Of a DNA stretch of 63,543 bases, positions 5,984-34,595 are shown piece by piece. The DNA is taken from the NCBI GenBank assembly GCA_044345405.1, contig JBIJBE010000020.1:1-63543 (forward strand), read 5' to 3'. The notes under the pieces are model-generated. The model did no database searches. It saw only the letters and a program-made list of their open reading frames with translations, and had not been told where the DNA came from. A program made the position numbers and the translations under genes. Source of the DNA: Bdellovibrionota bacterium. GTDB lineage: Bacteria > Bdellovibrionota_C > UBA2361 > OMII01. The stretch's first letter is position 1. Every line of letters begins with the position of its first letter.

Positions 5984-7132
5984 ATGGCATCCGCGTATAT
6001 CGTTGACGCTGTTCGAACACCACGAGCCCGTAGAAAAGGAAAATTATCGAAGGTTCACGCAGTCGACCTTCTCACCTATCCACTCAACGCCGTCGTCAAT
6101 CGCAGTGGAGTCGCGCCTGAGCTCGTTGAGGACGTGCTTGTTGGATGTGTAACGCAAACACAGGAACAGGGATGGTGTGTGGGACGAGCGGCCGTGCTCG
6201 CCGCTGGGTGGCCTATCTCGGTGCCCGCGACTACCATCAATCGGTTATGCGGTTCGGGACAACAAGCGGTCAATTTCGCGAGCGCGAGCGTTGAATCAGG
6301 TCACTATGATCTCGTCGTAGCCGGCGGGCTTGAGCACATGACCCGGGTGCCGATGTTCTCGGATGGTGGAGGCGAAGAGAGTCCCCTTCTCAAGCACTAC
6401 CACCCTGATCTCGTGCAACAGGGAGTGGCCGCCGAGATACTCTCTCAAGAGTTCGATATTAGCCGCCTCGAAGCTGACGAATTCGCCTACCGATCACAGA
6501 TAAACGCGAAAAAAGCGATTTTTGATGGTAGATTTAAACGCAGCATGGTTCCCGTCCCCTACACGGATGAACAGGGAGCTGAGCGAGTGCTTGAGGTCGA
6601 TGACAATCCCCGTTCAGACACCACTATCGAGGGACTTCACAGCTTAAAGACCGTTTTCAAAGAGGATGGAATTATCACCGCTGGAAACGCTTCAGCGATC
6701 GTAGATGGCGCCGCCGCTGTTCTCATCGCGAGTGAGGGCGCTCTCAAGAAACATTCTCTTACTCCACGCGCTCGCGTCGTCGCGCAGAGCGTTGTCGGCT
6801 CTCCTCCTCGAGTCATGCTCACCGGACCTATCGAAGCCACACGACAGGTTCTTAACAAAGCGGGGCTACTGCCGCATCACATCGACGTGTGGGAGATCAA
6901 CGAAGCGTTCGCGCCGGTTCCACTTCTCACCATGCGTGAGATTCGAATCGATCAAACCAAGGTAAACGTAAATGGCGGGGGCATCTCTCTCGGGCATCCC
7001 CTTGGGGCGACGGGCGCGATCTTGATCGGAATGGCGCTGGACGAATTAGAGCGCTCCAACAAGAGGTACGCGCTCGTGACGATGTGTATCGGTCTCGGAA
7101 TGGGCATCGCGACGATCATCGAGCGGGTGTAG
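5984..7132 (+). CDS. acetyl-CoA C-acyltransferase (thiolase)
   Basis: INRLCGSG, TAGNASAIVDGA, EINEAFA, NVNGGGISLGHPLGATG and CIGLGMG motifs. Confidence 0.95.
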   Translation: MASAYIVDAVRTPRARRKGKLSKVHAVDLLTYPLNAVVNRSGVAPELVEDVLVGCVTQTQEQGWCVGRAAVLAAGWPISVPATTINRLCGSGQQAVNFASASVESGHYDLVVAGGLEHMTRVPMFSDGGGEESPLLKHYHPDLVQQGVAAEILSQEFDISRLEADEFAYRSQINAKKAIFDGRFKRSMVPVPYTDEQGAERVLEVDDNPRSDTTIEGLHSLKTVFKEDGIITAGNASAIVDGAAAVLIASEGALKKHSLTPRARVVAQSVVGSPPRVMLTGPIEATRQVLNKAGLLPHHIDVWEINEAFAPVPLLTMREIRIDQTKVNVNGGGISLGHPLGATGAILIGMALDELERSNKRYALVTMCIGLGMGIATIIERV

Positions 7133-7324
7133 CTCTACCAGAAATAAATCTCTCAACATAAACAGCAGGTTAGCGGGCTCAAGAATCAATTCATGGATCA
7201 TCGCGAACCAGCCGATTATACTGAAACATGAAGAGGTTACCGAGGATTTACCCCTCATAGAGTCGAGGGGCAAGACGCTCCAAACACGGTAGCCAGAGGG
7301 GATTTTGGGGAAGGCTTTCACGTA

Positions 7325-9715
7325 ATGCTGCGCGCATTAGAGATCTTACTACTGCAATTCATCGAGTGGTTCTATTCACTCAGCCCCGCCGTTGGCCTCG
7401 GAACCCTGGGTGTCGCCGGCGTGACCGGGATCGTCGCGCAACTTCTCATCACCGGAAACTCGACATTCGGAAAGACGATGCTCCCTGGACTCCTCGGTGT
7501 CTTCTTCCTCGCCGCGGAGAGCGCTCACTACGGTCGGCCTGAATGGGTGATCGGATTGGTGCAACAACTTCAGGACTCACTCCAAACTCCACGAGCGAAC
7601 GCGCTTAAGCCTATTCCAATCATAGAGCCCCTCGTCTCATTCCTGATAGCGCCAGCGGCGACACGATCGGTAGTGGAAGAGAGTCTCTTTGTGATCATCT
7701 TTGCCTACCTCGCCCTCGTCGCCCGCCACAGCTGGACCGGCTACAAAACAACTGGCATCGTGCTTGGCGACATGTCGGTTGGTAGCATGCTCAAAGAGAA
7801 GCATAGACGGCCCAACCGTTCCCAGACGAACGAATTAGGGTCGGGAGACCTCGCGACCACGCAGCAGATAGCGACCTGGACGAAATCAACCGGAAAACCG
7901 GGAGAAACCTACCTCTACGTAAGCGAACTTCGAGGCTCTGAGGGAACCGCGTTCGCTCAATCCAAGCTCGTTCTCCCGGTGGAAGAGCGAAACCGACACG
8001 TTCTCGTGGTCGCTAAAACCGGTAGCGGTAAAACTACTAAATTCATTCATCCCATCGTGTACAACGACTGCCTCGACGCGCAGCGTTCGTGTATCATCAT
8101 CGACTCGAAGCCTGACATGTGGAAGACCTTCGCGGCGATGACGCGAAAGTACAACCCGACGAAGAACATCCTCCTTTTCAATCCGCTTGACCTAGCGCGC
8201 TCGCTCAGTTGGAACATCCTCTCCAAGATCGAGGATGACACCGACGCAAAGTTGATCGCGAACACGATCATCATGGCGACCGACCAGCCACAGGCGAAGT
8301 CAGACAGCCCCTTCTTCCGTAATAACGCCCTCGCGATCCTCAACGGAATCATGGTGGGACTCCTGCATGATCCGAAGGAAGTTCTCTCGATGCCCCGCAT
8401 CCACGAACTCGTTCAATCCGGAATGAAGAACCTGTGCGATTGGCTTGAGCAACATCCACACGCCATTCGAAACACCCGTTCTTTCGTGGAGCTCGCGCGC
8501 TCAGGCTCCCAGAACGCCGACACGATCATGTCAGAGTTGAGCATGCGTCTCAGCGCGTGGGACCTTCCCGCGATTCGCGCGACAACGAGCGCTGACGAGC
8601 TTGATATTGAGGACCTCATCGCGAAGCCCACCCTGTTCATCGTTGAGCTTCGAGAGTCCGAGCTTGAGATGCTTCGTCCGATGGCGAACGTAATCGTGGT
8701 AGAGATCCTGCGTTTCCTCACAAAGCGAGCGGAGCAACACAAAGGTGTTAAGCTCCCACGCCCTGTCGGAATCGTCATCGACGAGTTCGCGAGCGCGCTC
8801 GGTCGTCTTCCGGATATTCACGTTAAACTCAATACCCTTCGTTCCCGAAATGTGAGTATCGTCGCGGCGATTCAGTCTACCGCGCAGATCAAAGCGAACT
8901 ACGGTGACGACGCGGATTCCGTACTCGCCGGTTTCAGCACCAAGATCTTCATGCCCAACCTCGACCTGACCGACTCAGAGTGGGCATCAAAAGAGAGCGG
9001 TCAGATGACGATTCGCTTCAAGACCCAATCTGAGGGTGTGAACCGAAAACTTATCGAGGTATTCGCGAGCCGCAACGACAGCGTTCAGGAGCAAGTCCAA
9101 CAACGGGCGGTATTGACCCCCGATGAGATTGGAAAACCAGCGGACAATATCTGTACATTCTTCATGCCTGGAACGCCGGTATTCCAAGGGCATCTCATCC
9201 CGTTCTACAAGATCCCCGAGATGCTCAAGCGGATGACCGAGTTCAACGAGGATAATCAGCTCGAACTCCGTGTCTCACCAATTGAGTACAAGGAGACACT
9301 TCCCGCTCCAGGAGCAGCTCCCGCAGGCGGCGGAGGGGGCGGTGGCGGAGCTAACGCGCTCCCCAACGGCATCACGAATACCGCGGGATGGAGTGACGCC
9401 CAGGTCTCGCAGAAGCTGGATGAAGTTAAAAAGAATCTGGACTGGGATAATACGACAGGTAGCGCCCGCAAGTGGTGGGAGGCTTTCGAGAGTGAGAATA
9501 AGACCAGAATGCCACTCGTTCTGCGCCTCGCGGAGGAGTTGCAGGTGCGAAAAGCGACAATCACCGAGTTCTTCTTAGCCTACGTGTACAGCAACACCGA
9601 CAACATCCAAGCTAACCTTAGCTACCTCGATTACACTCGCCTCAAGAAGGAGGAGGAGAAAAAGAAGAAGGAAGCGGCCGCGAAGGCGGCGGGTGGTACG
9701 GATGAGAGGTGGTAG
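7325..9715 (+). CDS. VirD4/TraD-like type IV coupling protein (T4CP) with an extra C-terminal domain
   Basis: N-terminal TM helices, HVLVVAKTGSGKT Walker A, IIIDSKP, FNPLD..RSLSWN, SPFF, IVIDEFA Walker B, LRSRNVSIVAAIQS.AQ, and QRAVLTPDEI (TraG-D_C-like). A Pro/Ala/Gly linker then leads to a ~100-aa tail domain. Confidence 0.88.
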   Translation: MLRALEILLLQFIEWFYSLSPAVGLGTLGVAGVTGIVAQLLITGNSTFGKTMLPGLLGVFFLAAESAHYGRPEWVIGLVQQLQDSLQTPRANALKPIPIIEPLVSFLIAPAATRSVVEESLFVIIFAYLALVARHSWTGYKTTGIVLGDMSVGSMLKEKHRRPNRSQTNELGSGDLATTQQIATWTKSTGKPGETYLYVSELRGSEGTAFAQSKLVLPVEERNRHVLVVAKTGSGKTTKFIHPIVYNDCLDAQRSCIIIDSKPDMWKTFAAMTRKYNPTKNILLFNPLDLARSLSWNILSKIEDDTDAKLIANTIIMATDQPQAKSDSPFFRNNALAILNGIMVGLLHDPKEVLSMPRIHELVQSGMKNLCDWLEQHPHAIRNTRSFVELARSGSQNADTIMSELSMRLSAWDLPAIRATTSADELDIEDLIAKPTLFIVELRESELEMLRPMANVIVVEILRFLTKRAEQHKGVKLPRPVGIVIDEFASALGRLPDIHVKLNTLRSRNVSIVAAIQSTAQIKANYGDDADSVLAGFSTKIFMPNLDLTDSEWASKESGQMTIRFKTQSEGVNRKLIEVFASRNDSVQEQVQQRAVLTPDEIGKPADNICTFFMPGTPVFQGHLIPFYKIPEMLKRMTEFNEDNQLELRVSPIEYKETLPAPGAAPAGGGGGGGGANALPNGITNTAGWSDAQVSQKLDEVKKNLDWDNTTGSARKWWEAFESENKTRMPLVLRLAEELQVRKATITEFFLAYVYSNTDNIQANLSYLDYTRLKKEEEKKKKEAAAKAAGGTDERW

Positions 9716-9807: not shown

Positions 9808-10332
9808 CTACAACACCCTCTCAATCGCCGCCACAACGCTCTTAGCGTCCGGGGATACATAGGACCGCCATCGTCCGATGAGGTGTCCCTCACGGTCGAG
9901 GAGGAACTTCTCGAAGTTCCATTTAACGCTCCCTTGCAGATCTTTGGGGCCGTGTTCGGTCAAAAACTCAAAGACAGGCTGCTTAGAGATCCCCTTCACA
10001 GCGGCTTTCGGCATGAGCGGGAAGGTCACGCCATGATTAAGACGACACGTGGATTCAATCTCTTGGTCGGAGCCAGGTTCCTGGCCTAAGAAATCGTTAC
10101 TCGGAAAGCCGACCACAACGAATCCCCTCGCGGAGTATTTCTGGTAGAGAGCCTCTAGGGAGTCATACTGACCGGCGAATCCACACTGAGTCGCGGTGTT
10201 GACCACAAGGATAACATTCCCTCGATGGGGAGCTAACTGTCCACCAAACAACTCAGGCTTGTCGAATACCGACACTTGAGACTCAAGCGGCGCTGATGTC
10301 GTACCTCCGTATACATTGGTCAGAAGTCCCAT
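9808..10332 (-). CDS. glutathione peroxidase family protein
   Basis: VVNTATQCG, GFPSNDFLGQEPG and WNFEKFL motifs. ATG at 10332 with a GGGAG RBS (ORF track start 10383). Confidence 0.93.
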   Translation of the reverse strand: MGLLTNVYGGTTSAPLESQVSVFDKPELFGGQLAPHRGNVILVVNTATQCGFAGQYDSLEALYQKYSARGFVVVGFPSNDFLGQEPGSDQEIESTCRLNHGVTFPLMPKAAVKGISKQPVFEFLTEHGPKDLQGSVKWNFEKFLLDREGHLIGRWRSYVSPDAKSVVAAIERVL

Positions 10333-10345
10333 ACGAATTCTCCCT

Positions 10346-11278
10346 CTACAAAATCGTATCACGTGAACGACGTCCGAAATCATCCGCGGGCTCTACATGT
10401 ACGAGCACCTTCGCTACCGCTGGAAGAGCACTATGGATAGCCTCACCAACGTTATGCGCCACCTCATGTCCATGACGAATCGTCTCATCAGGATTACAGA
10501 GGACGTCGAGATCAACGAAATACACGAAGCCAACCTTACGTACCCCACATTTGTGGGTACCGAGTACTCCTGGGACATGCAACGCAATATCCCTAATCGA
10601 TTGCGCGATCTCAGGCGCCGGCGCTGTATCTATCAGCTCTGACAACGCCGGACGGAAAAGAATGAGCGCGTTAACGGCTATCACAACAGCGGCCACCAGG
10701 GCCGCGATATCATCCGCCATCTCAAAGCCAGGACCTCCAAACACAGCGACCGATATGCCGATGAAGGCCGCGGCGCTCGTAATTGCGTCAGCCCGATGAT
10801 GGAAGGCATCCGTTTTCACCGCCACACTTCCAATTACTTCGCCCGTATGCCCCACGTATCGAGCGAGGAACCCTTTGACCACGATAACCGCTAAGAGGAC
10901 ACCCAATGTGAAGGGCTCCGGAGCGTGGTGCGGTGTAAGGATCTCTCGAACGCTCTCAATCATGATCAGAACCGCCGCCCCGAGAAGGGTGAGAGATACA
11001 ACAGCGGCGGCTAACGGTTCAAACTTTCCATGCCCATAGGGATGGTTCGTATCAGCGGGTTTGCCCGCCATACGCACACCAAGCAGAACAACAAAGCTGG
11101 TCACCACATCCGCGGCGGACTCGATCGCATCCGCGATGAGGGCGTACGAGTTGCCGACAACGCCAGCCACCCCCTTCACGACAGCAAGGCAAACGTTTAC
11201 CCCCATTCCAAGTAGAGTGGAGCGAACCCCCACTCTACGAGCGTGCTCAAGATGTTTAGTCTGAAGGTCAGTCACCAT
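10346..11278 (-). CDS. cation diffusion facilitator (FieF-like) transporter
   Basis: SYALIADAIES..D, HPYGHGKFE, HHRADAITS motifs and a C-terminal dimerisation domain ending VHVEP. Confidence 0.93.
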   Translation of the reverse strand: MVTDLQTKHLEHARRVGVRSTLLGMGVNVCLAVVKGVAGVVGNSYALIADAIESAADVVTSFVVLLGVRMAGKPADTNHPYGHGKFEPLAAAVVSLTLLGAAVLIMIESVREILTPHHAPEPFTLGVLLAVIVVKGFLARYVGHTGEVIGSVAVKTDAFHHRADAITSAAAFIGISVAVFGGPGFEMADDIAALVAAVVIAVNALILFRPALSELIDTAPAPEIAQSIRDIALHVPGVLGTHKCGVRKVGFVYFVDLDVLCNPDETIRHGHEVAHNVGEAIHSALPAVAKVLVHVEPADDFGRRSRDTIL

Positions 11279-11304: not shown

Positions 11305-14300
11305 CTAGTGAAGATCGGGAATCGGAGGAGGAGACGCTTTCCGATCGGAGCTTGTGCTCAGGAACATCGCGAGCAGTTTTCGCTTGGAGGTTGAGTCGTT
11401 GAAGTGTTTGGTAAGGTCATCGAGCAACCCTCCGAAACCAGGTTGGTGCGCCCAGTGGGACTGATACGCCGCCATGAGACGCTCCCGATACTTCGGTCCA
11501 CGACTCTCAAGATAGCTACAGATCCGCGCCTCAGCGCCCTCCGGAGGCTCAACGCCCTCTTTGGCGCATTTAATAAGGGTGAAGAGCTCTCGGGCGGAGG
11601 AGGAAACTTCCGGCCCGTACAACCTGCTGGAGATATCCTCAAGCGCTTCATTCGCGACACCCTGTTTGCGGGATGACACTACGAGAGACTCCCCAAACTG
11701 ACGACGATACGACAGACCGATCTGATAGATCATTTCATCCATCCAGTTGATGTCCTGCGGAATACGCTCATTCACATGATCGTGCGTCTGAGGAGTCAGC
11801 ACGTCAATTACCTTGGCGGCTAGCTCAGGACCGGATATCACCTCAATCAACCCTCGCAACTCTAGCGCTACCGACTGTGAGCAGTATCCCTCAAGATGAA
11901 GCAACGTTTCATTAATCAGATCAGGATCAACTTGAAGCTCTTTAAGCGCGTGTCGGAACGTTCTATCAGGATAGATGAGATCGTAGCACTCCTCGATAAG
12001 CTTCTGCGTGTGCTTATGCGCCCGAAGTATCTCTTGAAGGGTCTGAATGTCGAGCGCGTCGAAGCACTCCTGCACGCGTGAGAGAATATCCGGGTCGATC
12101 CCCTCAAGCAGCAAAACAAGCTCAACGAAAGAACCCACGGTCAACGAGAGACGCGCGGCGACACCCTTCAAATGCACACGGAGAGAGCCGAAGGTATTGT
12201 CGTATGCGCGTTCAAACGCCATCACCTTGAGGGCTGGTCCGGAGCATACCATTCGCAACGTTTCAAGCTCTGGTGGTGTCTCACGCCTCATGACGCCGAG
12301 CAATCGGCGAACGGCAATAACCTCCGGCTTCAAGAGCGCGCTGACCGCTTCAAGAGCGAGGTCCTTATCACTACAACTCTCGCCAGCTTTCATCACGTGA
12401 TCGAGAAGATCCACATAGAAGGCACGTTTGAAACTCTCTCGGAGAAAGATGATATCGTGACTCGGTAGCTCTCGCAGTCGGCACGAGGAGAGAGGATCCT
12501 CATGAAGTCGCTGCAGAATGACTCTCCCATTAAAGCCACTGAAAGAAAGCATGAGCGTAGACAACCCATCAGGTGTCATCACCTCGCCCAACGCCTCACG
12601 CAGCGGCGTATGAGGATCGGTCATATCAAAAAAGACACGCTCAAGCTCATGGAGCGATTCCATAGGAAGGCTCGCGAGCGTTTCCCGCACCACACGATCC
12701 ATGTCGCTCGGAGGTCGCTCTTCGTCGAGAATCTGACCCAAGCGGATAGCTAATGCCTCAACCTCAGCGGTTGGGGTGTAGTCATAGTCCCAAACGCCCG
12801 ACCCGAAATCCTCAGCGCGGTACTGAGCGAGAAGGTCGATATTAAGCGGCCATCGTCCATGTCCATCGAGGTAGCGAGCGCAGATCGCCTCAAGATCAGG
12901 CGGAGCTATGGGTGAACCTAGCGCCGCGACGCGTCGCTCTAACGCGTCGCGCATCGAAACACCAAAGAGGCACACGTACGCCCTCTGCGTGGCGAGACAC
13001 TCTCGAGGCTCGAGATATTCAATCGGCTGAAGAGCTTCGTAAATATCAAAGGAGACTCCGAGCCGCTCATGAAACAACACGGCTCGCTGACGAGCGTCGA
13101 ACAGATTCAAGGACAAAAATATGGTGGGGTCAAGCTCATAGCCGTAGTACTCTCGAAGCGCTTGGTTCGTAGCGAGAAAACGGGAGTACGAAAGCGCGGC
13201 GACACGTTCCCGAAGCTGCTGGTATGAGATAAATGATAAGGCGACGACCGAATTACTATACCTAAGCAATCGCGTTCGCTTACATCGACGTAAAAATGGT
13301 CCAATTCCCTGGGTATATTCCCTGTCAACGGTATCCCGCGGATCCCCGTGGAGATCATCAAGCACCCCTCGATGGCTTGGTATCGAGAGGACCTTGTGAA
13401 TCTCTTCCGCCTCACCGTGAGGAGTCCATCCGCGTACAAGAGGAGCGAGGCGCTCCAACTCGGCGGGAGGAAAGAGGCGCCGAATTTGGGATTCCAGGGT
13501 CAAATCGTTGTCGGGTAGGTGTTGCTCCCCAAGATCCATATAAAACCGCTTCACTAACGCGAGCTCCTCAGCGCTTCGTCCTGTGAGCAGGTATCGAAGA
13601 GCGCGAAGCTGATCGCGCGCCCGGAAGGCGGTAGTCTTTTTGTGTTCACTCAACTCCGACTTACCGATAGTTCGACGTCCACCCACTGGGGCATTTGAGG
13701 CGGTATGATTGAGCGTGGAGAAGAGTTGTCGCGCGAGGTCCTTGTACGGCAGCTTTAAAAACTCCTCTCGCAAGGCGATCACTTGCATTTCAGTACAATC
13801 GAGCAACATGTCGAGAATTCGGTTTGCCTTATCTGAATGCCCACCTTGGTATATATCCCATAGTTTCTTGGCGGTCGCCTCCACATCGAGCCCAAAAACG
13901 ATACGCTGCAACCGCTCCGCGTGGGAATGTCCCACCCGCTTAATAATCTGATTATAGATCTCAGGGCGCTCACCTCGCTCCCTGATGAGGGCATAGTAGT
14001 GCTCGGTGAAGAATTCGTTCGCTCGCGTAAGTATATCCAGAGATTCGTGGCAAGATCGCTCAGCCAGGGCGACGTTGAACGCGCTCAGATAGACATCCAA
14101 CTCCGTTTCACGATCTTTTTGGGCTAACTTATATACCTGATGCGCGAGTGCTTCCGCGATCGCCTGACGCTCACCCGCTTGGTGATCACGCTGTCGTAAG
14201 GATTCTCGCGAGTGGGGCTCGGCCACGGGCAATGGTCGCTCGGATATCCGCTGCAGCTGTTCTACACCTCCATGCACCTTTAAAGGTCGATGGAATTGAT

Positions 14301-14466
14301 CGAAGATCTCGCCTTCGTAGAAATATCGCTGTTCGTCTTTGGCTTCCGGTTGTGCCTCAGCGATAGAATCAACCTGAAGTATCTCAGAGTTGAGGTCCGC
14401 GCCACCGTCCGTCCGTGAACGTCGCTTCAGTATGATCTTTTTTCCGTCAGGTCTTGAACCGTCCAT
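11305..14466 (-). CDS. large all-helical protein with multiple degenerate annexin-like repeats (putative)
   Basis: 1053-aa ORF. Recurrent segments such as ATAKKLWDIYQGGHSDKANRILDMLLDCTEMQVIALREEFLKLPYKDL, LLTGRSAEELALVKRFY and ICSYLESRGPKYRERLMAAY resemble the annexin repeat by eye. The CDS is near-certain; the family call is tentative. Confidence 0.6.
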   Translation of the reverse strand: MDGSRPDGKKIILKRRSRTDGGADLNSEILQVDSIAEAQPEAKDEQRYFYEGEIFDQFHRPLKVHGGVEQLQRISERPLPVAEPHSRESLRQRDHQAGERQAIAEALAHQVYKLAQKDRETELDVYLSAFNVALAERSCHESLDILTRANEFFTEHYYALIRERGERPEIYNQIIKRVGHSHAERLQRIVFGLDVEATAKKLWDIYQGGHSDKANRILDMLLDCTEMQVIALREEFLKLPYKDLARQLFSTLNHTASNAPVGGRRTIGKSELSEHKKTTAFRARDQLRALRYLLTGRSAEELALVKRFYMDLGEQHLPDNDLTLESQIRRLFPPAELERLAPLVRGWTPHGEAEEIHKVLSIPSHRGVLDDLHGDPRDTVDREYTQGIGPFLRRCKRTRLLRYSNSVVALSFISYQQLRERVAALSYSRFLATNQALREYYGYELDPTIFLSLNLFDARQRAVLFHERLGVSFDIYEALQPIEYLEPRECLATQRAYVCLFGVSMRDALERRVAALGSPIAPPDLEAICARYLDGHGRWPLNIDLLAQYRAEDFGSGVWDYDYTPTAEVEALAIRLGQILDEERPPSDMDRVVRETLASLPMESLHELERVFFDMTDPHTPLREALGEVMTPDGLSTLMLSFSGFNGRVILQRLHEDPLSSCRLRELPSHDIIFLRESFKRAFYVDLLDHVMKAGESCSDKDLALEAVSALLKPEVIAVRRLLGVMRRETPPELETLRMVCSGPALKVMAFERAYDNTFGSLRVHLKGVAARLSLTVGSFVELVLLLEGIDPDILSRVQECFDALDIQTLQEILRAHKHTQKLIEECYDLIYPDRTFRHALKELQVDPDLINETLLHLEGYCSQSVALELRGLIEVISGPELAAKVIDVLTPQTHDHVNERIPQDINWMDEMIYQIGLSYRRQFGESLVVSSRKQGVANEALEDISSRLYGPEVSSSARELFTLIKCAKEGVEPPEGAEARICSYLESRGPKYRERLMAAYQSHWAHQPGFGGLLDDLTKHFNDSTSKRKLLAMFLSTSSDRKASPPPIPDLH

Positions 14467-14541
14467 GCCTATCCCCTCCCCAAGGCGCCTCGTTCCGGAC
14501 TCTCAATGCCCCCACGCGGCGCGCGGGAGCGAAACGATCTC

Positions 14542-16725
14542 TTAGGTGTACTCCATCTCAATCCAAGCTCGTTCGCGCCTGTCTTGGTCCGGATCCTCAA
14601 CGATATCCCGTAGTACTATTCGGCCAAGTCGGGCGTTTATTACATCAATTGAGGCGTTTTTTCCGTCCATATGGAGCGGATCCAAGAAATCCGGATGGTA
14701 TCTAAGCATGTGATCTAACACGGCTCTGTCATGCTCGGACTTGGAGATCATCGCCCAGACGTTCTTGCCGACCCACGCGAAGTCCTGCACTCCCCAATCC
14801 AGGAGCCGCTGGACGTAATGTCCAACCGCCAGGAGCTCCTCAGGCGCCGGTGGACGCTCGAACTGGTAGGTACCTTGGCTGTTGCGCATTCGCTCCGCAA
14901 TCCAGACAAGGTTCGCCACAAGTTGCGGCTCACAGTGCTTGGCGAGCACTCGACGCTCAAGTGTCGAATCGAGGTACGCCATCTTCATCGGATGAATACG
15001 ACGAAGAAACGCGTCATCTAATTTACGATTAAAGTTCTTCGTGAAGATCACGAGAAGGTTATCGATGTTACAATCAATAGGTGGTCGGGACTCCAGGTGG
15101 ATACGCGCGTCCTGGATAGGTCCAAGGAAGAAGGTGTCGATATGCCCGTCGACCTTATCGATCTCGTCCACAAGAAGGATAACCGGTTGGCTCTGTGACT
15201 TAAGGAACGCTCGAGACAAGATACCGAGGTTCATCAGCTTGTCCTTGGCCCCAACCTCCTGCCCGGCCATAGACGACGCGATCGCGAGCGATGAAGGCAC
15301 CTCGATGAGGTGCTGAGTATTCATGCCGTGATAGCAACTTAATACCATCATCTCAGCGCCTGTAATCTTCGCGAGGCATTTCGCGAGGAAGCTCTTACCG
15401 CACCCCGAAGGCCCCTCGAGCAAAATCGCGCGAGTTCTATCGGACGGAGTGGTGAGCAACAACGCCATCTGCGTCGCCGTAAAGCGAGCGCATTGATATC
15501 CTACAGCTTGAAGACGGCGAGCCAACTCCTCTGGATTCTCAAAATTGGAGAGCCCTATCTTTTCAGGCTTATATGCCTTACCACGACGAACTTTGTCAGG
15601 ATCGTTGACCACGTCCTCAAGCAACCAACGACCTAAGCGAGCATGGATCTGCTCTAACGTCGCGTTACGATTATCGGGTACCAACGGGTCTGAGAAATCC
15701 GGATGGTAACGTAACATCTGCTCGAAGATCGTTCGATCGTGCTCAGACTTCGCGAGCATATAGAACAGATTCCTTCCAACGAACGCGAAATCGATAAGAT
15801 CCCAATCTAAAAGGTTGGTGATATAGTGCGCTGATTTCAGCAATTCCTCAGGCGCGGGCGGTCTCTCAAACGGGTACGATCCGTTCGACTCTCGCATGAT
15901 ATCCGCGACCCGCACGAGGTTATCCACAAGCTTCGGGCTGCAATACGGTCCAAGAACTCGACGCTCAAGGGACGACTCCATGAATCTCATGCGCAATGGG
16001 TGCACACGTCGTAATAACGCCTCGCTGAGCGGACGCTCGAAGTTCTTAGTGAAGATAATAAAGAGGTTATTTAGATTGGCGTCGATAGGAGGACGCGATT
16101 CAAGCCATACACGAGCGTCCTGAATCGGACCAAGGAAGAAGGTGTCGATGGCGACATCGACCTTATCGATCTCATCAATGAGAAGAATAACGGGCTTCGT
16201 CTGTGAGGTAAGGAACGCTCGCGAGATGATACCGAGATTCATCAAGTCCTCGGCCGAACGCTCTCCTTTGCCCGCCATCGCGTTCACCATGCCGAGAGTT
16301 GATGGCGATTCAACGAGATGCTGAAGATTCATCCCCTTGTAACACGACAAGCACATGAACTCCGCGCCAGAGATCTTCGCTAATGACTTCGCGAGGAAGC
16401 TCTTACCGCAACCCGAGGGTCCCTCGAGGAGCATACATTTAATGCTCGTCATGTTTGTGTTTAAGACGAGCGAAAGCTGCACAGCGTAGAACGGCGCGCA
16501 ATGATATCCTACCTCACCAAGTTTGATCTCAAGCTCCTCAGGGGAACCGAGATCCTGAAATCCCACCGAGGTCGGTTTATACGTGGTGTGGAAATTAGGA
16601 TTTGAAACACCAAGCTCGCTACCATCCGTTTTAGCGACCATGCCGTCGGCGTTCGTGCCCGAACGGAAGGTGAGGCCCTTCGTAGAGCTGGTGATGGGGA
16701 GTGACTTGTTTGAATCGGACGACAT
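14542..16725 (-). CDS. tandem (internally duplicated) MoxR/CoxD-like AAA+ ATPase
   Basis: Two modules offset by 336 aa (1008 nt), each with GPSGCGKS Walker A, LL(I/V)DEIDK Walker B, FTKN sensor and (L/F)LRR arginine finger. Confidence 0.88.
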   Translation of the reverse strand: MSSDSNKSLPITSSTKGLTFRSGTNADGMVAKTDGSELGVSNPNFHTTYKPTSVGFQDLGSPEELEIKLGEVGYHCAPFYAVQLSLVLNTNMTSIKCMLLEGPSGCGKSFLAKSLAKISGAEFMCLSCYKGMNLQHLVESPSTLGMVNAMAGKGERSAEDLMNLGIISRAFLTSQTKPVILLIDEIDKVDVAIDTFFLGPIQDARVWLESRPPIDANLNNLFIIFTKNFERPLSEALLRRVHPLRMRFMESSLERRVLGPYCSPKLVDNLVRVADIMRESNGSYPFERPPAPEELLKSAHYITNLLDWDLIDFAFVGRNLFYMLAKSEHDRTIFEQMLRYHPDFSDPLVPDNRNATLEQIHARLGRWLLEDVVNDPDKVRRGKAYKPEKIGLSNFENPEELARRLQAVGYQCARFTATQMALLLTTPSDRTRAILLEGPSGCGKSFLAKCLAKITGAEMMVLSCYHGMNTQHLIEVPSSLAIASSMAGQEVGAKDKLMNLGILSRAFLKSQSQPVILLVDEIDKVDGHIDTFFLGPIQDARIHLESRPPIDCNIDNLLVIFTKNFNRKLDDAFLRRIHPMKMAYLDSTLERRVLAKHCEPQLVANLVWIAERMRNSQGTYQFERPPAPEELLAVGHYVQRLLDWGVQDFAWVGKNVWAMISKSEHDRAVLDHMLRYHPDFLDPLHMDGKNASIDVINARLGRIVLRDIVEDPDQDRRERAWIEMEYT

Positions 16726-17049: not shown

Positions 17050-17907
17050 ATGCCTATAGTGATTGGATCAAACTTATTCGCCTCGCGAGTTCAGTTCGCG
17101 ATGGACAGAACGGGCGAAAAACTCCGCTCGGTATACCACAGCCTCTCAACAGGATCTGACGTGAGCCTCTACGGCGAAATGGGTGGACGCCTCACCCTTG
17201 CGGATCGTCTTCGCACACAAACAAAGGTAGCGACCGTCGCGCTTCGTAACGCGAATGATGGACTTTCCTACATCGCGACGGCCGACTCCGCGCTCTCTGA
17301 GATGCAGAATATCCTCACTCGCATGGCGGAGCTCGCTAACCAGGGAGCTAACACGACCTTTACCTCCGCGCAGCGTTCCGCCTTTCAGTTAGAATTCTCC
17401 GCGCTCGGTTCTGAAATTGACCGTATCTCGGCGGCGAATACCTTTAACGGTCAAAACACGATCTCCTCGGGTTCTAACCTCACCCTCCAAGTTGGCGTTA
17501 CAGGGGGAGCGGAGTCATCCATTATCATTCAATCCGTAGTGGCTACCGTTCAGGCTCTAGGAATCGGCACGGCTAGTGGCGCCCTCTCCTACTCGATATC
17601 GGCCGCGACCTCGGATCTCTCGGTGACCGCTTCACGACTGGCATACAGCGCTCTTCTCAACGCACAGGACTCTCTCGCCCTTAAACGTGGAACGCTTGGC
17701 GCGGTAACGAGTCGTCTCGCGATGGCTGTCGATTACCTGACCGTATCCCGCGAAAACTACACCGCCGCCGAGAGTAACATTCGCGACGCCGATACCGCGC
17801 GAGACGTCGCCGAATTCACGCGACTCCAGGTTCTTCAACAAGCTCAAGCGGCGCTGTTAGCCCAAGCTAATCAGCTCCCATCTCTTGTGCTGAAACTGCT
17901 CGGTTAA
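17050..17907 (+). CDS. flagellin (short, diverged paralogue)
   Basis: RNANDGLSYIATADSAL.EMQNILTRMAELANQ, EIDRI, FNG, and C-terminal RGTLGA...AESNIRDAD.A...LAQANQLPSLVLKLL. Confidence 0.92.
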   Translation: MPIVIGSNLFASRVQFAMDRTGEKLRSVYHSLSTGSDVSLYGEMGGRLTLADRLRTQTKVATVALRNANDGLSYIATADSALSEMQNILTRMAELANQGANTTFTSAQRSAFQLEFSALGSEIDRISAANTFNGQNTISSGSNLTLQVGVTGGAESSIIIQSVVATVQALGIGTASGALSYSISAATSDLSVTASRLAYSALLNAQDSLALKRGTLGAVTSRLAMAVDYLTVSRENYTAAESNIRDADTARDVAEFTRLQVLQQAQAALLAQANQLPSLVLKLLG

Positions 17908-21001: not shown

Positions 21002-22201
21002 ATGTCCTTAGGCGATCCGAATCCCTCCCCCGAGAGAGACCCTAAACATTCAGGGGCCTCTCCAAAGCGGCCGCAATTCCTGATTAGCGAGCTCAACCCT
21101 ATCGGGGTAGAGATGTACATTGAAAATTTAGATCGCCTTACAGATGTGCTTCACCTCTGCGGACTCACACCAAGCGGCGATGCGATCGAGTACATCTGGA
21201 GATGTCTTCTCAAAAACCAACTAACCACAATCGAGGAGATCCATGAGCGTCAGGGCCCGCTCGGAGTAAGTCTTGAGCTCGATCTTTCATCGAAGCATGA
21301 GCTCGAATGTCGAAGAGATCTTAATCCGGATGAGGGGGGCTATGATGAAAGGGTATTAGTAACCATTTCCACCCGACATCGGGAGGGAAGTGAGCTCGGA
21401 GCGCTCTTAAACTTGAGCGAGGGATGCCCGGGGCTCGACGGCCTCTTTCTTGAACTACAGTCGACACCAATAGGTGAGTCTGCGGCGCTCGCTCGTATCT
21501 ACTGGGATAAACAGGGACTGGCTGAGACCACGGCCGGCGAGCGATGGGATCTCCTACGCGGATTCTATCACCACTTCAAGCACTCCGAGCTTCCCAAAGT
21601 CGTGTCGCTGACCTCTGGTCAACAGGAGACATTCCACTACCTCTCGGTAGATCTCGATCCGATGACCGTTCGAGTTGAGCGACTCCCTCAAAACAGTGAA
21701 CATCCAACGTCATTACATTCGTCGTCTGATCTTCACGACTCTCCCCCAAACACAGTCGAACTCAGGATGGAAAAGGTTCCACTCCCCCTGCTCGAAAAGA
21801 TCCTCTCGATGACGGGAGCTCTTCAACTTGAGGGACCATGGGTAACAGAAACCTCACGACGTGAGATCCTCAATCATCTCCTCGACCGCTTACGATCGCT
21901 CGCCAAGTTCGACATCGATACCTTGAAGATGTGCGCCGCCGCCCGTCCGTGTATCATCTTTTCACGCGAGGACACGTGCGATGGAGAAATTTTCCCCCCT
22001 CAGATCTCCTCTCGAGTCACCATGACGGACTACACGTGCGCCGCGGGAGAGTTCCGACTCGAATTTCTCGCGCGACCAGGCGGTAACGGCCTTGAGGTGC
22101 TCTGTCGTTGGGACAAAGGGCACAGCAAGCTCAACTCCTTTCCGTGGGACACCATAGAACGCCTCGCGCGGCCGTATGTGATTGATTCACCCGAAGAGTA
22201 A
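21002..22201 (+). CDS. hypothetical protein
   Basis: 399-aa ORF filling the gap between genes; no recognisable motif; disordered N-terminus (MSLGDPNPSP). Confidence 0.7.
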   Translation: MSLGDPNPSPERDPKHSGASPKRPQFLISELNPIGVEMYIENLDRLTDVLHLCGLTPSGDAIEYIWRCLLKNQLTTIEEIHERQGPLGVSLELDLSSKHELECRRDLNPDEGGYDERVLVTISTRHREGSELGALLNLSEGCPGLDGLFLELQSTPIGESAALARIYWDKQGLAETTAGERWDLLRGFYHHFKHSELPKVVSLTSGQQETFHYLSVDLDPMTVRVERLPQNSEHPTSLHSSSDLHDSPPNTVELRMEKVPLPLLEKILSMTGALQLEGPWVTETSRREILNHLLDRLRSLAKFDIDTLKMCAAARPCIIFSREDTCDGEIFPPQISSRVTMTDYTCAAGEFRLEFLARPGGNGLEVLCRWDKGHSKLNSFPWDTIERLARPYVIDSPEE

Positions 22202-25321: not shown

Positions 25322-26692
25322 ATGCTTCGAGAAAATCCTGAATGCGACGTAACCGGCCGAACTCCCCTCGCGTCACACGAGCGTACTGACCTCGGCTCAG
25401 GCCGACTCCCCTCCCGTCCCTTCGTTGGGCCAGAGCAGCAGGTTGATCCTTTAAAGGCATATCTCCGTGAGATCCGCCCCGAGACTCGCCCTCTTGGGGA
25501 ACGAGTTTCTCAACCAATAGCCGAGCGCACAGCCACTACGCATGGCTCAAAGAACCTTCGAGACTTCGCGACCCTCAAACATCGAGAGAAGGAGGGCTTA
25601 CTCCGTCAGGATGAGGCAGAGTACGCTCGATACGGAACTCCTATTCTGCGACGGGTCGAAGACGCGCTCGCGAAGCTAGATGGCGGCGAACAAGCGCTCA
25701 TCTTCAGAAGCGGCATGGCCGCTATCGAAACGCTCATCCACTCCATACTTCCAACCAAAGGCGCGGAGCGTGGGCACATCATCGCCGCTCGACAAGGCTA
25801 TAGACAGACAAACGCTATCCTTGAGGAGCTCAACGCTCGCGGATGGGCCGAAGTTGATTTGATTGACGCCGATGATTTCAACCAACTCGCGCGATTCATC
25901 AAGCCCAATACGGTAGGAATCATCTTCGAAACACCCTCGAATCCTTTCCTTCGGGTTATTGATGTCGCCGCGGTGAAGAAGCAGGTGGTTGAAGTGGGCT
26001 CGAACGCTCTTGTTATCGCCGATCACACCTTCGCGGGCCCGACCAATCAACGTCCGCTTGAGCAAGGCGCCGATCTGGTTATTCCATCTCTCACAAAATA
26101 TATCAGCGGAAGCAACCAAGCTCTCGCGGGAGCGGTCATCGGAAGCAAAGAGCGCCTTCTCCCCATCTATCAACGACGAAGCCGTAGCGGAAACATCGGT
26201 CACGATATCGATTGTCTCGAGGTCGAAAACGGTATCGCGACCCTTGAGGAGCGAACCGCTCAAGCTAACGAGAACGGACTCCACGTCGCGAACATCCTGG
26301 ATCGACACCCCCTCGTTAAGCAGCTCTGGTACCCAGGGCATCCTTCGCACCCGGACTACGAGGTCGCCACGAAGCAGATGACCGGCTTCGGAGGCGTCGT
26401 TTCGTTCACGATCGACGCGCGAGACATGCGGGATGTTGAGGCGTTCGTCGACGCCTTTATCGCGGCATCTCCGGAGGGGACATTCCTCGCGCCATCGTTC
26501 GGCGGAGACAAACCACTTATCTCCGCGGTAACTGTTGTGTCGCACTTCCAGCAGTCGGCGCAGGAGCGTGCTGCTCGCGGCATCCCGTTCGAGCTTATTC
26601 GGCTCTCAACGGGAACGATTCCGCCGCAACAACTCACCGACGCGCTTGAAGCGGCGTTTACCGCGCTTGAGAAACGACAGCACGAAAACTAA
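25322..26692 (+). CDS. PLP-dependent Cys/Met metabolism enzyme, cystathionine gamma-synthase-like
   Basis: YARYGTP, SGMAAI, FETPSNP, DHTFA, SLTKY (PLP lysine), YPG and APSFGG motifs; downstream of a SAM-I riboswitch. Confidence 0.88.
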   Translation: MLRENPECDVTGRTPLASHERTDLGSGRLPSRPFVGPEQQVDPLKAYLREIRPETRPLGERVSQPIAERTATTHGSKNLRDFATLKHREKEGLLRQDEAEYARYGTPILRRVEDALAKLDGGEQALIFRSGMAAIETLIHSILPTKGAERGHIIAARQGYRQTNAILEELNARGWAEVDLIDADDFNQLARFIKPNTVGIIFETPSNPFLRVIDVAAVKKQVVEVGSNALVIADHTFAGPTNQRPLEQGADLVIPSLTKYISGSNQALAGAVIGSKERLLPIYQRRSRSGNIGHDIDCLEVENGIATLEERTAQANENGLHVANILDRHPLVKQLWYPGHPSHPDYEVATKQMTGFGGVVSFTIDARDMRDVEAFVDAFIAASPEGTFLAPSFGGDKPLISAVTVVSHFQQSAQERAARGIPFELIRLSTGTIPPQQLTDALEAAFTALEKRQHEN

Positions 26693-28230
26693 GATTGGTC
26701 TCCCTTGCGAATCGCGATGATCAACGCGTCCGCGCCAAAAACCTTGGCGGTGCCGAGCCGCGCGCGGTCCTCCTCTAGGACCGGAGAAACCTTCCTAATC
26801 TCATAGCGACTCGCCACTGGTGAGTTACTAAAATCGGTCATCAGAACATCCAGCCCGATAACGATGTCCGGACGCCTCTCTTCGATGAAGGCGGCCGGAA
26901 CGCCTCCGTGATACCCGGTCGGACGTTGCGAGGGCACCTTAAGGGGATGAAAGCGCAACACTCCGGGAGACGCCAAACCTACGGTGTCCTCAACAGGCCC
27001 GGGAAATGAGAATCCAAGAGCTCCGATCTCGGGCGCGGCGACCTTCGCGTTCGCATGCTCGAGAGCCAACCATTCACCGAGGTGCCTCAATTTTCGGGCC
27101 CGCGCACCCGATTCAAAGAAGGGCATATACGCGAAGTTCCGAGACCCAAGCACGACACACAGCGCCGTGGCAAAGCACGGAATAAGAAGGGTAATCGCCA
27201 GCAATCGTATACGCCCAGTCGCTCGGAACGAGTCTCGCACGAGCGCGAGGTGGAGCGGCACAAGATAAAGCGGCGCGTACCACGGGAAGATGAGGACCCG
27301 CTTCATACCGTAGACCGCCAGTATCACAACAGCGGGCAAAAGGATCACGAGAAACGGAGAGGAGCGAGCCTCTCGAACCAGTGTCTCGAATGAAACCCTC
27401 TTTTGGCGGAGGGTGAGAACAACAGCCATGACTACGGCTCCGAGGATCACAGGTGGCACGACAATCTTGGCTACCCAACCCCCATAACTTCCGATAAAGA
27501 GCAGGCGAACGAACTCGGATCCCGTGAGGCTGTACACGATCTCCTTAGCCCGAGCGGTATGTGGATAGAGCTCGCCGAAGAAATGAAACTGAAACCAAGA
27601 AAGTGAGGCGAGCACCGCTCCGCTTACCACTATCTCGCGCGCGCTCCACGGTTGCTTACGCGCTATCTTCCAGACAACTCCGCACACCGCGAATACAGCG
27701 CACTCAGGTCGCGCGAACATCGAAGCGCACAGGAAGGGAACTCCCATGACCGAACCACGCGCGATGCCGAGCAATCCCCACCCCACAAGTAAAAGCGCCA
27801 CCGGGGTCTCCATCAAACCGATACTGGAGGGAGCGAGGGTAAAGAAGACCACGATAGCGGCGACAGAGATCTCACGGGTATGGCGAGGGTGCGCCGTCTG
27901 GAGGTAGAAGAGAGCCCAGACAAGAGTCGCTCCCACGAGAATGAACGCGTTGAGAAGCGCCACAACCAACGGTTGCGATTCTAAAAGCGTGGCGAACGGA
28001 GCGATGAGAATCACCCATAACGGCGAGGTGGAGGCCATCACTACCTCACCTTTGTTGAAGTACGGAAGCCCCACTTCCCACAGATTCTGCGCTATTCGCA
28101 TGTGAATATACGCGTCATCATCGGCGTATGGCACCATCACGTAGTGAAGATAGAGCGCAAACGCCAACAACCCAACAAGGGTACGCGATAAGGCGGCACT
28201 ATGGTGAGAAGATGAACGGCGCGAGGTCAC
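26689..28230 (-). CDS. multi-TM GT-C-like glycosyltransferase (DDAYI type)
   Basis: DDDAYIHMRIAQNL...G..YFN.GE....STSPLW, GLMETP, RPE, and C-terminal EIGALGF...D.VGL motifs; many TM helices. Confidence 0.75.
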   Translation of the reverse strand: MTSRRSSSHHSAALSRTLVGLLAFALYLHYVMVPYADDDAYIHMRIAQNLWEVGLPYFNKGEVVMASTSPLWVILIAPFATLLESQPLVVALLNAFILVGATLVWALFYLQTAHPRHTREISVAAIVVFFTLAPSSIGLMETPVALLLVGWGLLGIARGSVMGVPFLCASMFARPECAVFAVCGVVWKIARKQPWSAREIVVSGAVLASLSWFQFHFFGELYPHTARAKEIVYSLTGSEFVRLLFIGSYGGWVAKIVVPPVILGAVVMAVVLTLRQKRVSFETLVREARSSPFLVILLPAVVILAVYGMKRVLIFPWYAPLYLVPLHLALVRDSFRATGRIRLLAITLLIPCFATALCVVLGSRNFAYMPFFESGARARKLRHLGEWLALEHANAKVAAPEIGALGFSFPGPVEDTVGLASPGVLRFHPLKVPSQRPTGYHGGVPAAFIEERRPDIVIGLDVLMTDFSNSPVASRYEIRKVSPVLEEDRARLGTAKVFGADALIIAIRKGDQS

Positions 28231-32891: not shown

Positions 32892-34595
32892 TCACCTGCC
32901 GGGATCGGTATCCTGGACGTTCGGCTTCGGCAGAGCGCGATATACTCGAATAGTGTTTGCGGTGTACTGCCACTCTCCAAGGAGGAGCTCTCCCCAGGCC
33001 GCAACCTCCTCAAACCCCTCTCGACTTGGGTTTTTCTGGCACGCTCCGTCATCAATCGTTACAACCAGGGTATTCGGGGGTACCGGCATCTGAGGAAGAC
33101 AGCTTCCAGAGTAATGCTCATAGGTGCGGTCAGGATTCAGATAAAGGTAATGCTTCGGAAGCTCACCAAGCGCGGCGATATCGTCACGCGTCAGTAACGT
33201 CGGCACCGGTCTCTCTCCCCGAGGAGTCACCCTCTGCGCAACCTGCCACACGCGAAAGGAAAGGGGGGGGAGGTTTGGAATCGGAAGACGATAGACCGTC
33301 CATATTCCCGGCACGACTACGCACAGCACCAAGAGCGCTACGGCCCGGCTCGAGAGACGATACGGCTCAATCCGCCTCGCGAATCCGAAGGCAACAAGCA
33401 AAACAAAGAGAGGAAAGATCGGCGCGGCGCGATGCATGCCCGTCATCTTCCAAAAGGCAAGCTCCGGTGACATGCCACTCGCGAAGAAACTCACAAAGAT
33501 CAAAGCCACAGACCACGAGCAGAAGACGAACACCTGCCAACCAAACCGAAAAAAAATTCCACCAATAAGGAAGAGAAGGAACACCGCTTGAAAAGGCAGG
33601 GCGGCGTACCACATGCCGTTACTTTGGGTGAAAATGAAGACCCCGAGGTCCTGCAGCCGTTCCGAAAGGTGATCGATATGCTGGCGCCCCACGCCAAGTC
33701 GAAGGTCTAAGCGATACCCTAACGTCTGCGCGAAACAGACCACAGCGAGAGCTCCAGTCATAAGGAGAGGCTTCGCGCCGCCCGAGGGAACATCGTGGCG
33801 AAAAGAGTTCCACGTCAGAAAAACCGCGAGCAAACACAGCACCGCGAGTATCGGTGGATACATCGACGTTGACACCAAAATCAGGGCGAGGAGCGCGAAG
33901 AACGCCACTCTGTCCGCCCGCTCTATCCACAGCGCAACAAGCCCGATGAAGATCATCGTGAGCGCCACAGGATGGGTTGTTTGATCGTGATAGTAGATGA
34001 TCCGGAGGAAGAGCGCGCATTGAAACAGGGAGAGCATCGCAAGACCCGTTATCAGGTCACTCGTTCGAGCGCGCTCCGTCACAATCCGAATCGCTTGAGC
34101 GAGCAGCGCGATTCCGGGAAATAAAAGTAAGGACGCGCCGAGGTTTGCGATAAAGGGCGAAAAACCCAAAAAATGTACCGGCAAAACCTGAAGCAGGTAG
34201 GACCGTGTCGGATATCCGATGAAACATTGGCTACGAAACCCGTAATCCAACAGGTCTCTGAACGCGAGCTGTGGACACCCGAACTCAAAGATATTCTCAT
34301 CACTTAACAAACGCTCTGGAATCGCGACGGCGATAATAAAGAGCCACCACGCCACAACGCTGCCCACCGTCCACCACTGTCGATCCTCACGAGCTTGCGC
34401 CACAAGCCGTAGGAAGGCGCTTCCACCCACCAAGAACACCAGAAGATAGACGCTCACTATCCACGCATACCCAACCAACCCGAGCGATGGATAGACACCT
34501 ACAAGGAGATCGAGAAGAGGATAGGAGAGAAGAAAGAGCGTGGATGGTTTGCCTAAAAGTCGGATGAAAGACCTCATACGATCACAAATCCTCAT
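32892..34595 (-). CDS. polytopic membrane protein, possible GT-C/glycan-modifying enzyme
   Basis: About 12 hydrophobic segments, an acidic SDE loop after the early TMs and a soluble C-terminal domain; overlaps the 3' end of a GT4 gene. Confidence 0.65.
   Translation of the reverse strand: MRICDRMRSFIRLLGKPSTLFLLSYPLLDLLVGVYPSLGLVGYAWIVSVYLLVFLVGGSAFLRLVAQAREDRQWWTVGSVVAWWLFIIAVAIPERLLSDENIFEFGCPQLAFRDLLDYGFRSQCFIGYPTRSYLLQVLPVHFLGFSPFIANLGASLLLFPGIALLAQAIRIVTERARTSDLITGLAMLSLFQCALFLRIIYYHDQTTHPVALTMIFIGLVALWIERADRVAFFALLALILVSTSMYPPILAVLCLLAVFLTWNSFRHDVPSGGAKPLLMTGALAVVCFAQTLGYRLDLRLGVGRQHIDHLSERLQDLGVFIFTQSNGMWYAALPFQAVFLLFLIGGIFFRFGWQVFVFCSWSVALIFVSFFASGMSPELAFWKMTGMHRAAPIFPLFVLLVAFGFARRIEPYRLSSRAVALLVLCVVVPGIWTVYRLPIPNLPPLSFRVWQVAQRVTPRGERPVPTLLTRDDIAALGELPKHYLYLNPDRTYEHYSGSCLPQMPVPPNTLVVTIDDGACQKNPSREGFEEVAAWGELLLGEWQYTANTIRVYRALPKPNVQDTDPGR

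Follow-up and report, generated by a model that had tools for sequence, protein, structure and literature searches.

What does an ATPase with two motor modules in one chain do beside a gene for a giant protein resembling annexins? The question is raised by a 63,543-nucleotide (nt) stretch of DNA from a Bdellovibrionota bacterium (contig JBIJBE010000020.1 of GenBank assembly GCA_044345405.1), here called the window, in which the two genes lie one behind the other on the same strand. MoxR-class ATPases are among the least understood motors of the AAA+ superfamily (ATPases associated with various cellular activities), and the textbook rule is that they carry one module per chain and have a partner with a von Willebrand factor A (VWA) domain. 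For bacterial annexins we know of neither a function nor a partner. The analysis described here places the ATPase in an old and conserved branch that departs from the rule twice, by the fusion of two modules and by at least two pairings with large non-VWA proteins, one of which consists of annexin-type repeats. Both anatomy and linkage are genuine and out of the ordinary, and the linkage is narrow, being found in one genus and one further family of uncultured organisms. A genetically linked ATPase provides a concrete handle on bacterial annexin repeats. If the two proteins work together, they would show an AAA+ motor changing clients by an adaptor swap and would give annexin repeats in bacteria their first functional context. 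The answer that we favor, tentatively, is that the genes form a lineage-specific two-gene module in which the annexin-like protein would be a client or adaptor of the tandem motor and not a general stand-in for the VWA partner.

The original prediction for this locus, made from the DNA letters, had described a 727-amino-acid (aa) protein with two near-collinear AAA+ modules of MoxR/CoxD type, and the coordinates, strand and length of this protein were confirmed. Residues 1-47 are disordered and are followed by the two modules. The segments 49-385 and 386-721 align without a single gap at 60% identity (202/336); in other words, the protein is duplicated internally, in tandem. Walker A (GPSGCGKS), Walker B (DEID), a TKN sensor-1 stretch and an RR pair, motif names that were assigned by reading the sequence, occur in both modules, and the same four stretches are invariant columns in both halves of an alignment of 33 homologues. 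Since the catalytic motifs are kept invariant in both modules, both look catalytically competent.

The class of the modules was examined with profiles and with an AlphaFold2 (AF2) model (predicted local distance difference test score, pLDDT, 77; predicted template modeling score, pTM, 0.56). Pfam AAA and AAA_5 each matched two stretches of the protein, AAA_5 with 75.4 bits, and AAA_3, which is MoxR proper, was not among the best 25 of the 50 Pfam families matched. A structure search of the model against 48,161 chains, performed without Foldseek, gave CbbQ2 as the top match (6l1q_C; Z 18.9, root mean square deviation (rmsd) 3.9, 252/267 residues) and NorQ as the second (9qh4_A; Z 17.8, 243/254 residues). 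The next chain, nucleotide-binding domain 2 of ClpB, scored Z 15.4, which is at least 2.4 Z units below these two. With CbbQ2 and NorQ leading the search, each module is CbbQ/NorQ-like and of the MoxR class, and the label given in the original prediction was thus borne out at class level. The secondary-structure string of the model, on which alone the helix-2 insert and the pre-sensor-1 β-hairpin were looked at, contained short strands at residues 139-141 and 162-164; further paired strands, of two residues each, lie between helix 195-202 and strand 221-227, as assigned by DSSP.

Searches with the whole chain were less informative. By phmmer the ATPase gave P-loop-level matches only in the PDB (midasin, p97, Msp1), midasin being the best. 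Foldseek placed midasin/Rea1 and dynein on top with template modeling (TM) scores of 0.22-0.26; as long multi-AAA chains dominate that list, the clade is not resolved in this way. Superpositions of both modules at once were poor, with an rmsd of 8-15 Å for the stacked type and 19-22 Å for dynein. With a pTM of 0.56, the model is not a reliable guide to the placement of one module against the other, nor therefore to a single-ring arrangement. The best curated family was NCBIfam NF047784, 'MadB family AAA-type ATPase' (133.8 bits, E 6.8e-39, four stretches), which was also the best for a single-module orthologue (68.8 bits, E 4.4e-19); its cut-off of 475 bits was reached neither by the tandem or single-module ATPase nor by any match in the genome. 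The name MadB could not be traced in the literature, where the matches concerned malonyl-ACP decarboxylase, lanthipeptide dehydratase, fungal photobiology and mandibuloacral dysplasia.

The large protein gave an AF2 model of higher quality (pLDDT 86, pTM 0.81) that is all-helical after a disordered N-terminal segment of 54 residues. From the helix list of the model the body was segmented into 11 units of approximately 70-110 residues, mostly with five helices each, and internal repeat pairs were aligned by hhalign with probabilities of 93, 92 and 58%. The Pfam annexin family (PF00191) did not match the window protein at E ≤ 1. It matched 15 of 44 family members at E ≤ 0.01, the best with E 1.1e-8, and when five homologues were scored singly four reached 25.2-35.5 bits and one 23.3 bits, the gathering score of the family being 25 bits. 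The profile of the large-protein family retrieved eight chains from the PDB sequences at E ≤ 1, seven of which are annexins (best E 0.0064). Foldseek returned annexins VI, V and IV at probabilities of 0.99-1.00 with TM scores of at most 0.26. In a second structure comparison all 50 rows were annexins, annexin fusions or giardins, aligned to model residues 565-790 with Z scores of 7.4-10.1, which is below the level that the tool considers safe for helical repeats; the superpositions had an rmsd of 9-13 Å over 130-190 residues. The nearest Atlas clusters also carry the Annexin label, with scores of 0.78-0.89 that serve as leads only, and phmmer against the PDB gave nothing meaningful. The evidence supports, at the level of the repeats, a protein of roughly 11 divergent annexin-type repeats with a five-helix fold. 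The earlier description of the protein as annexin-like therefore stands for the repeats, which are seen in the Pfam matches of homologues, the profile search and the structure comparisons, and does not extend to the four-repeat annexin disc, which, by the low TM scores and large rmsd values of the global superpositions, does not seem to be reproduced, or to the calcium loop.

A type II annexin Ca2+ site is formed by a G-x-G-T loop and a distal acidic residue. The pattern G.G[TS] occurs nowhere in the window protein, which counts against the annexin reading of the original prediction; among the 44 family members, 27 have no such pattern, 16 have one and one has two. In the profile alignment the 'KGMGTDE' loop of annexin V lies opposite a stretch of the large-protein family that lacks glycine. 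The missing loops argue against a classical annexin mode of action. A DxSxS motif is likewise absent from the protein, and the all-helical model contains no VWA domain or metal-ion-dependent adhesion site (MIDAS). The N-terminus is not signal-peptide-like and a cytoplasmic location of this putative scaffold is proposed; one hydrophobic helix (769-787) lies within the confidently folded body. The disordered N-terminus of the protein (P0002, residues 1-60, window positions 14290-14466 on the minus strand) contains the basic alternating motif GKKIILKRR. Distant relatives (P0229, P0230, P0104 and P0106 were compared) have NKKIVIKKI, PKKILLRKK and PKFKLKIKP in its place. The conserved basic tail can be written as KKI-x-x-K-[KR], and a second conserved patch, YEGEIFDQF-RP, follows. 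Residues K9, K10, I11, G52, F55 and Q57 are invariant or nearly so, and this basic segment is a possible docking tail. The family is small, with 65 members at E ≤ 0.001 among 1.84 billion representative proteins, and the full-length members listed are 934-1109 aa long.

The spacing of 75 nt between the two co-oriented genes, as originally described, was confirmed. The spacer has a GGAGG-like ribosome-binding site approximately 10 nt before the ATG of the annexin-like gene, and no terminator-like site was found in it on the minus strand. Both genes are present in 22 genomes of the genus, and in all 22 they are adjacent and co-oriented. A wider set of 79 loci, taken from one genome per species and overlapping with the genus genomes just mentioned, comprised 43 complete tandem genes, 27 true single-module genes and 9 fragments at contig ends (including L079 and L080). 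The annexin-like gene was present at 32 of the 79 loci. In 29 of them it directly follows the ATPase gene, with a gap of -44 to +87 nt, and in three loci of another family (L056-L058) it is divergent and 190-274 nt away. The five genus-type loci without the annexin-like gene all end at the ATPase. At 11 other tandem loci and 20 single-module loci, each with flanks of at least 1.5 kb, the gene was absent. Members of the scaffold family turned up exclusively in genomes that carry a tandem ATPase, namely those of the genus and G031, G037, G125 and G126, and not in any of the single-module genomes searched. A complex prediction for the ATPase with residues 1-260 of the large protein scored 0.00 against a mark of 0.32, which is neither support nor contrary evidence.

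The original prediction had noted that no VWA gene lies here, and this was upheld by the all-helical model without DxSxS. It had also named a VWA partner in other genomes as an observation that would speak against it. No VWA protein was found among the recurring neighbor families of the ATPase at the 79 loci, nor among the 25 commonest families of the 70 immediate ATPase neighbors outside the genus, a comparison in which a one-off VWA neighbor would not show; in no lineage examined does such a protein recur beside the ATPase. The genome itself has VWA genes on contigs C6, C25, C29, C50 and C64, and VWA_CoxE was not found in it. Those on C29 and C50 lie beside or near canonical MoxR-type genes (C29 carries a canonical AAA_3 MoxR), and canonical MoxR(AAA_3)-DUF58-VWA clusters exist elsewhere in the genome. 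A VWA partner acting in trans was also considered. The orphan protein with a C-terminal VWA domain on C64 is fast-evolving and patchy, occurring in 25 of 41 genomes, and no candidate was found. A phmmer search of all open reading frames (ORFs) of the 79 loci with the five VWA proteins gave no match, a weak negative since in the control the queries barely find each other.

The history of the duplication was examined with a FastTree phylogeny of 83 of 115 module sequences, for which the genus loci were thinned to every third (Shimodaira-Hasegawa-like support, midpoint root). The first modules, the second modules and the single-module genes formed three groups, with parallel sub-topologies within both module groups, and this pattern fits one old duplication. 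Module 2 is 64-67% identical to the single-module orthologues and module 1 about 61%. Four loci (L068-L071) are exceptional in that both modules cluster together in the tree, which suggests a second, independent tandem duplication; the family concerned also keeps a separate single-module copy. In these loci the tandem gene is preceded, with an overlap of 4 nt, by a gene for a protein of about 600 aa, P0227/P0228 (e.g. L068:4779-6614 and 6611-9046). This arrangement, with which L027 and L028 are listed as well, was read as translational coupling. P0227/P0228 belongs to no Pfam or NCBIfam family. As a relative of the annexin-like family it was rejected (hhalign probability 0.3%), and its Atlas leads were at noise level (0.83, HAUS-like).

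The distribution of the two families is very different. At E ≤ 0.001 the large protein has 103 homologues and the ATPase 260, so both genes are real. The named relatives all come from metagenome-assembled genomes labeled Bdellovibrionota, Bdellovibrionales, Oligoflexia or with older proteobacterial names. Within the order, which consists of uncultured freshwater Bdellovibrionota, the large protein was found in 23 of 24 additional genus genomes and in 2 of 16 genomes from other families; the corresponding numbers for the ATPase were 22/24 and 15/16. Module 2 has matches in almost every family of the order and, at 53-54% identity, in one more family of the class; beyond these there was one weak match. 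Most families have the ATPase in single-module form, the open frames being about 360-470 aa long and 64-67% identical to module 2. The gene has other settings too. In 14 loci (10 single-module and 4 tandem, including L024 and L025) it is found just downstream of a Wza/Wzc-type export cluster with the same orientation, made up of an SBP_bac_5-like gene, a Wza-type Poly_export gene and a Wzc-type tyrosine-kinase/co-polymerase gene, and in 8 loci a gene for an NtrC-type sigma-54 regulator follows it. The ATPase is a highly conserved core gene of the order, clearly older than the annexin-like protein and as a rule working in its absence.

We favor a partnership between motor and scaffold, with slightly less than even confidence, because the genes are adjacent in two arrangements, the scaffold occurs only with the tandem form, no VWA protein recurs and the motifs are kept in both modules. 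The independent tandem duplication of L068-L071, which is likewise coupled to a large protein without a recognizable family, adds to this. In such a module the motor gene would have been duplicated in tandem long ago to give one chain with two apparently active modules, and the motor would use ATP to remodel the scaffold by assembling, disassembling or repositioning it. The scaffold would be an addition to an older, order-wide function of the ATPase. Co-transcription of the two genes would be expected, as would physical binding of the proteins, perhaps by way of the scaffold's conserved basic N-terminal tail, which would insert into the ATPase ring; that ring may be built from three chains as one six-module ring, or six chains may form two rings. 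The scaffold may associate with membranes, probably not via classical Ca2+ loops, the membrane part of the earlier idea resting on analogy with annexins only. A more elaborate version, which we consider unlikely, is that a three-chain, six-module ring would grip the scaffold tail and drive the ATP-dependent assembly or stripping of an annexin-like coat on the inner membrane. It would then be a Ca2+-independent counterpart of Vps4/ESCRT-III remodeling that evolved from a metal-chaperone-type ATPase by exchanging the VWA adaptor for an annexin scaffold. The proposal that the annexin-like protein takes the place of the VWA partner was thus narrowed. It may be at best a lineage-specific client or adaptor, and it cannot be a general replacement since the ATPase is present in nearly every family, mostly in single-module form and without the annexin-like gene.

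Several observations weigh against partnership, and part of them agree with a different account, somewhat unlikely in our judgment, in which the two genes are neighbors only. The ATPase would then perform order-wide housekeeping on another client, possibly with a partner encoded elsewhere, and the annexin-like gene would merely adjoin it in one genus and one family. In the phylum sample 87 of 124 genomes were positive in a search with module 2, nearly all of them inside the order, as befits a core gene. Searches for the annexin-like gene came out negative in 14 of the 16 genomes of other families, in all of five further genomes (four single-module, one with the P0227-paired tandem form) and in three other genomes with a tandem ATPase. 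Being 60-67% identical across families, mostly single-module and without the scaffold, the ATPase must have another, older role, and its single-module orthologues occupy the export-cluster and regulator contexts described above. Identities of the scaffold in the same genomes were 79, 55, 48 and 24% where those of the ATPase were 94, 87, 83 and 67%, which means a far higher rate of evolution for the scaffold. In G037, G125 and G126 the two genes are not linked, and in G037 they lie 124 kb from each other. Adjacency within the genus is weak evidence because these genomes are close kin, adjacency extends to one further family only, and the association of the scaffold with the tandem form may reflect shared ancestry alone. 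The expected linkage in other genomes held throughout the genus and, in divergent orientation, in a second family, and it broke down in the three unlinked genomes and the three tandem genomes in which no scaffold was found. On the other hand, mere neighborhood does not readily account for adjacency in two arrangements and two families, for the tight spacing of the co-oriented genes or for the restriction of the scaffold to tandem-ATPase genomes, and no alternative conserved partner was found, the patchy orphan VWA protein included.

Two further explanations draw on the surroundings of the pair. The ATPase could drive metal handling, as NorQ/NorD and the chelatase motors do, in a module for metal or oxidative stress, with the annexin-like protein as a metal- or Ca2+-binding adaptor that acts together with a transporter and a peroxidase. 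A co-oriented gene for a cation-diffusion-facilitator (CDF) transporter does start 26 nt after the scaffold gene, possibly on the same transcript, and a peroxidase gene overlaps the end of the transporter gene; the transporter is next in 10 of the 29 co-oriented loci. MoxR-class systems are moreover described as acting typically in target remodeling and metal insertion (PMC13036017). We nevertheless find this explanation quite improbable, as the synteny is confined to the genus and inconstant even there (L009 lacks the transporter and L012 has the peroxidase only), canonical Ca2+ loops and a MIDAS motif are absent, and the second family with the pair (L056-L058) has no such neighbors. Highly improbable is a conflict system, an anti-phage defense or anti-prey factor whose annexin-like protein would target foreign membranes. 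AAA+ ATPases with large uncharacterized proteins are common in defense islands, the phylum includes predators and a type IV coupling-protein gene lies nearby (Table 1). Yet the best PADLOC result was a generic AAA match to TRIP13 at 49.7 bits with nothing for the scaffold, the ATPase is a vertically inherited core gene, the GC content is flat over the region and the scaffold has no signal-peptide-like N-terminus.

Comparison with characterized systems places the favored pairing of tandem motor and scaffold between several of them. CbbQ-CbbO and NorQ-NorD (PDB 6l1q and 9qh4; PMC9976466, PMC13036017) share with it the module fold, the Pfam AAA_5 match and a large partner gene adjoining the ATPase gene. 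Here, however, there are two modules per chain instead of one and the neighbor consists of all-helical annexin-type repeats without VWA or MIDAS; moreover the sequence resembles solved MoxR proteins too little to be picked up by phmmer, and there is no Rubisco or nitric-oxide-reductase context. Midasin/Rea1 and dynein also have several MoxR/dynein-type modules in one polypeptide, but six rather than two, and the TM scores are low (0.22-0.26). The two-ring AAA+ proteins of type II (p97, NSF, ClpA/B), whose modules belong to the classic or HCLR clades, share the two modules per chain, whereas each module here is nearer to CbbQ/NorQ. The likeness to Vps4/ESCRT-III and NSF/SNARE may be called conceptual only, an AAA+ motor with a membrane-associated helical client, as Vps4 belongs to a different AAA+ clade (Z 12.6 versus 18.9 for CbbQ2) and ESCRT-III or SNARE-like proteins are absent. 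The best structural and profile matches of the large protein are eukaryotic annexins (A1-A13, annexin VI and the giardins), but the global superposition is poor, the four-repeat disc does not seem to be reproduced and no Ca2+ loop motif is conserved. Annexin-type repeats in bacterial proteins with no assigned role were surveyed by Kodavali et al. in 2014 (PMC3894181), whose main text states that genomic neighborhoods give no general functional clue, mentions 'ATPase' a single time, where it lists annexin activities in general, and does not contain 'Bdellovibrio'. Compared with those proteins, the one described here has about 11 very divergent repeats, a length of about 1000 aa throughout the family, no GxGT loops and a linkage to an AAA+ gene. 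In the literature searched, no description of a MoxR-type ATPase paired with an annexin protein was found by title or abstract.

Table 1. Coordinates of the tandem ATPase gene, the annexin-repeat gene and the genes around them in the window
Feature	Position	Strand	Basis
Tandem AAA+ ATPase gene (727 aa, P0001)	14542..16725	-	ORF and translation
ATPase module 1 (residues 49-385)	15571..16581	-	Gapless self-alignment to module 2, invariant motif columns
ATPase module 2 (residues 386-727)	14545..15570	-	Closer to single-module orthologues than module 1 is
Spacer between ATPase and annexin-like gene (75 nt)	14467..14541	-	GGAGG-like ribosome-binding site
Giant annexin-repeat protein gene (1053 aa, P0002)	11305..14466	-	AF2 model, Pfam in homologues, profile vs PDB, Foldseek
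CDF metal efflux transporter gene (310 aa)	10346..11278	-	Pfam Cation_efflux and ZT_dimer
Glutathione-peroxidase-type thiol peroxidase gene (191 aa)	9808..10383	-	PDB sequence search
Flagellin gene (285 aa)	17050..17907	+	Pfam Flagellin_N and Flagellin_C
Type IV secretion coupling protein gene (VirD4/TraG-like)	7325..9715	+	Just beyond peroxidase gene

The genes flanking the pair are listed in Table 1. The top match of the peroxidase in the PDB sequence search was Hyr1/glutathione peroxidase (E 2.5e-39), and its gene is present downstream in 7 of 11 genus loci. Chains of the phospholipid-hydroperoxide GPX4 type stand lower down in the same list, a faint hint, seen at genus level only, of a link to membrane-lipid damage. 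On the other side the flagellin gene points away from the ATPase gene, 163-640 nt from it, and this adjacency is seen in 19 loci, which all belong to the genus type. Homologues of the coupling protein occupy the same relative position in 7 genus loci (e.g. L029:14078-16180). Six large ORFs of the window (399-1059 aa) gave no Pfam family at E ≤ 1e-5; they lie at 56413-59592, 59609-61327, 32892-34595 and 26689-28230 on the minus strand and at 52784-54277 and 21002-22201 on the plus strand. The stretch was found in twenty lake-water DNA runs, and no RNA run was among those listed.

Two observations were made in other families. In one genome (G079:C37:24163-25152) two TAA stops fall inside module 2 of the tandem frame, which may point to a pseudogene or to a fault in the assembly. 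In the family whose pair is arranged divergently, the ATPase gene is followed by one (L056:9776-10291) for a nucleoprotein of the histone H1-like HC2 type (Pfam HC2, 55.7 bits).

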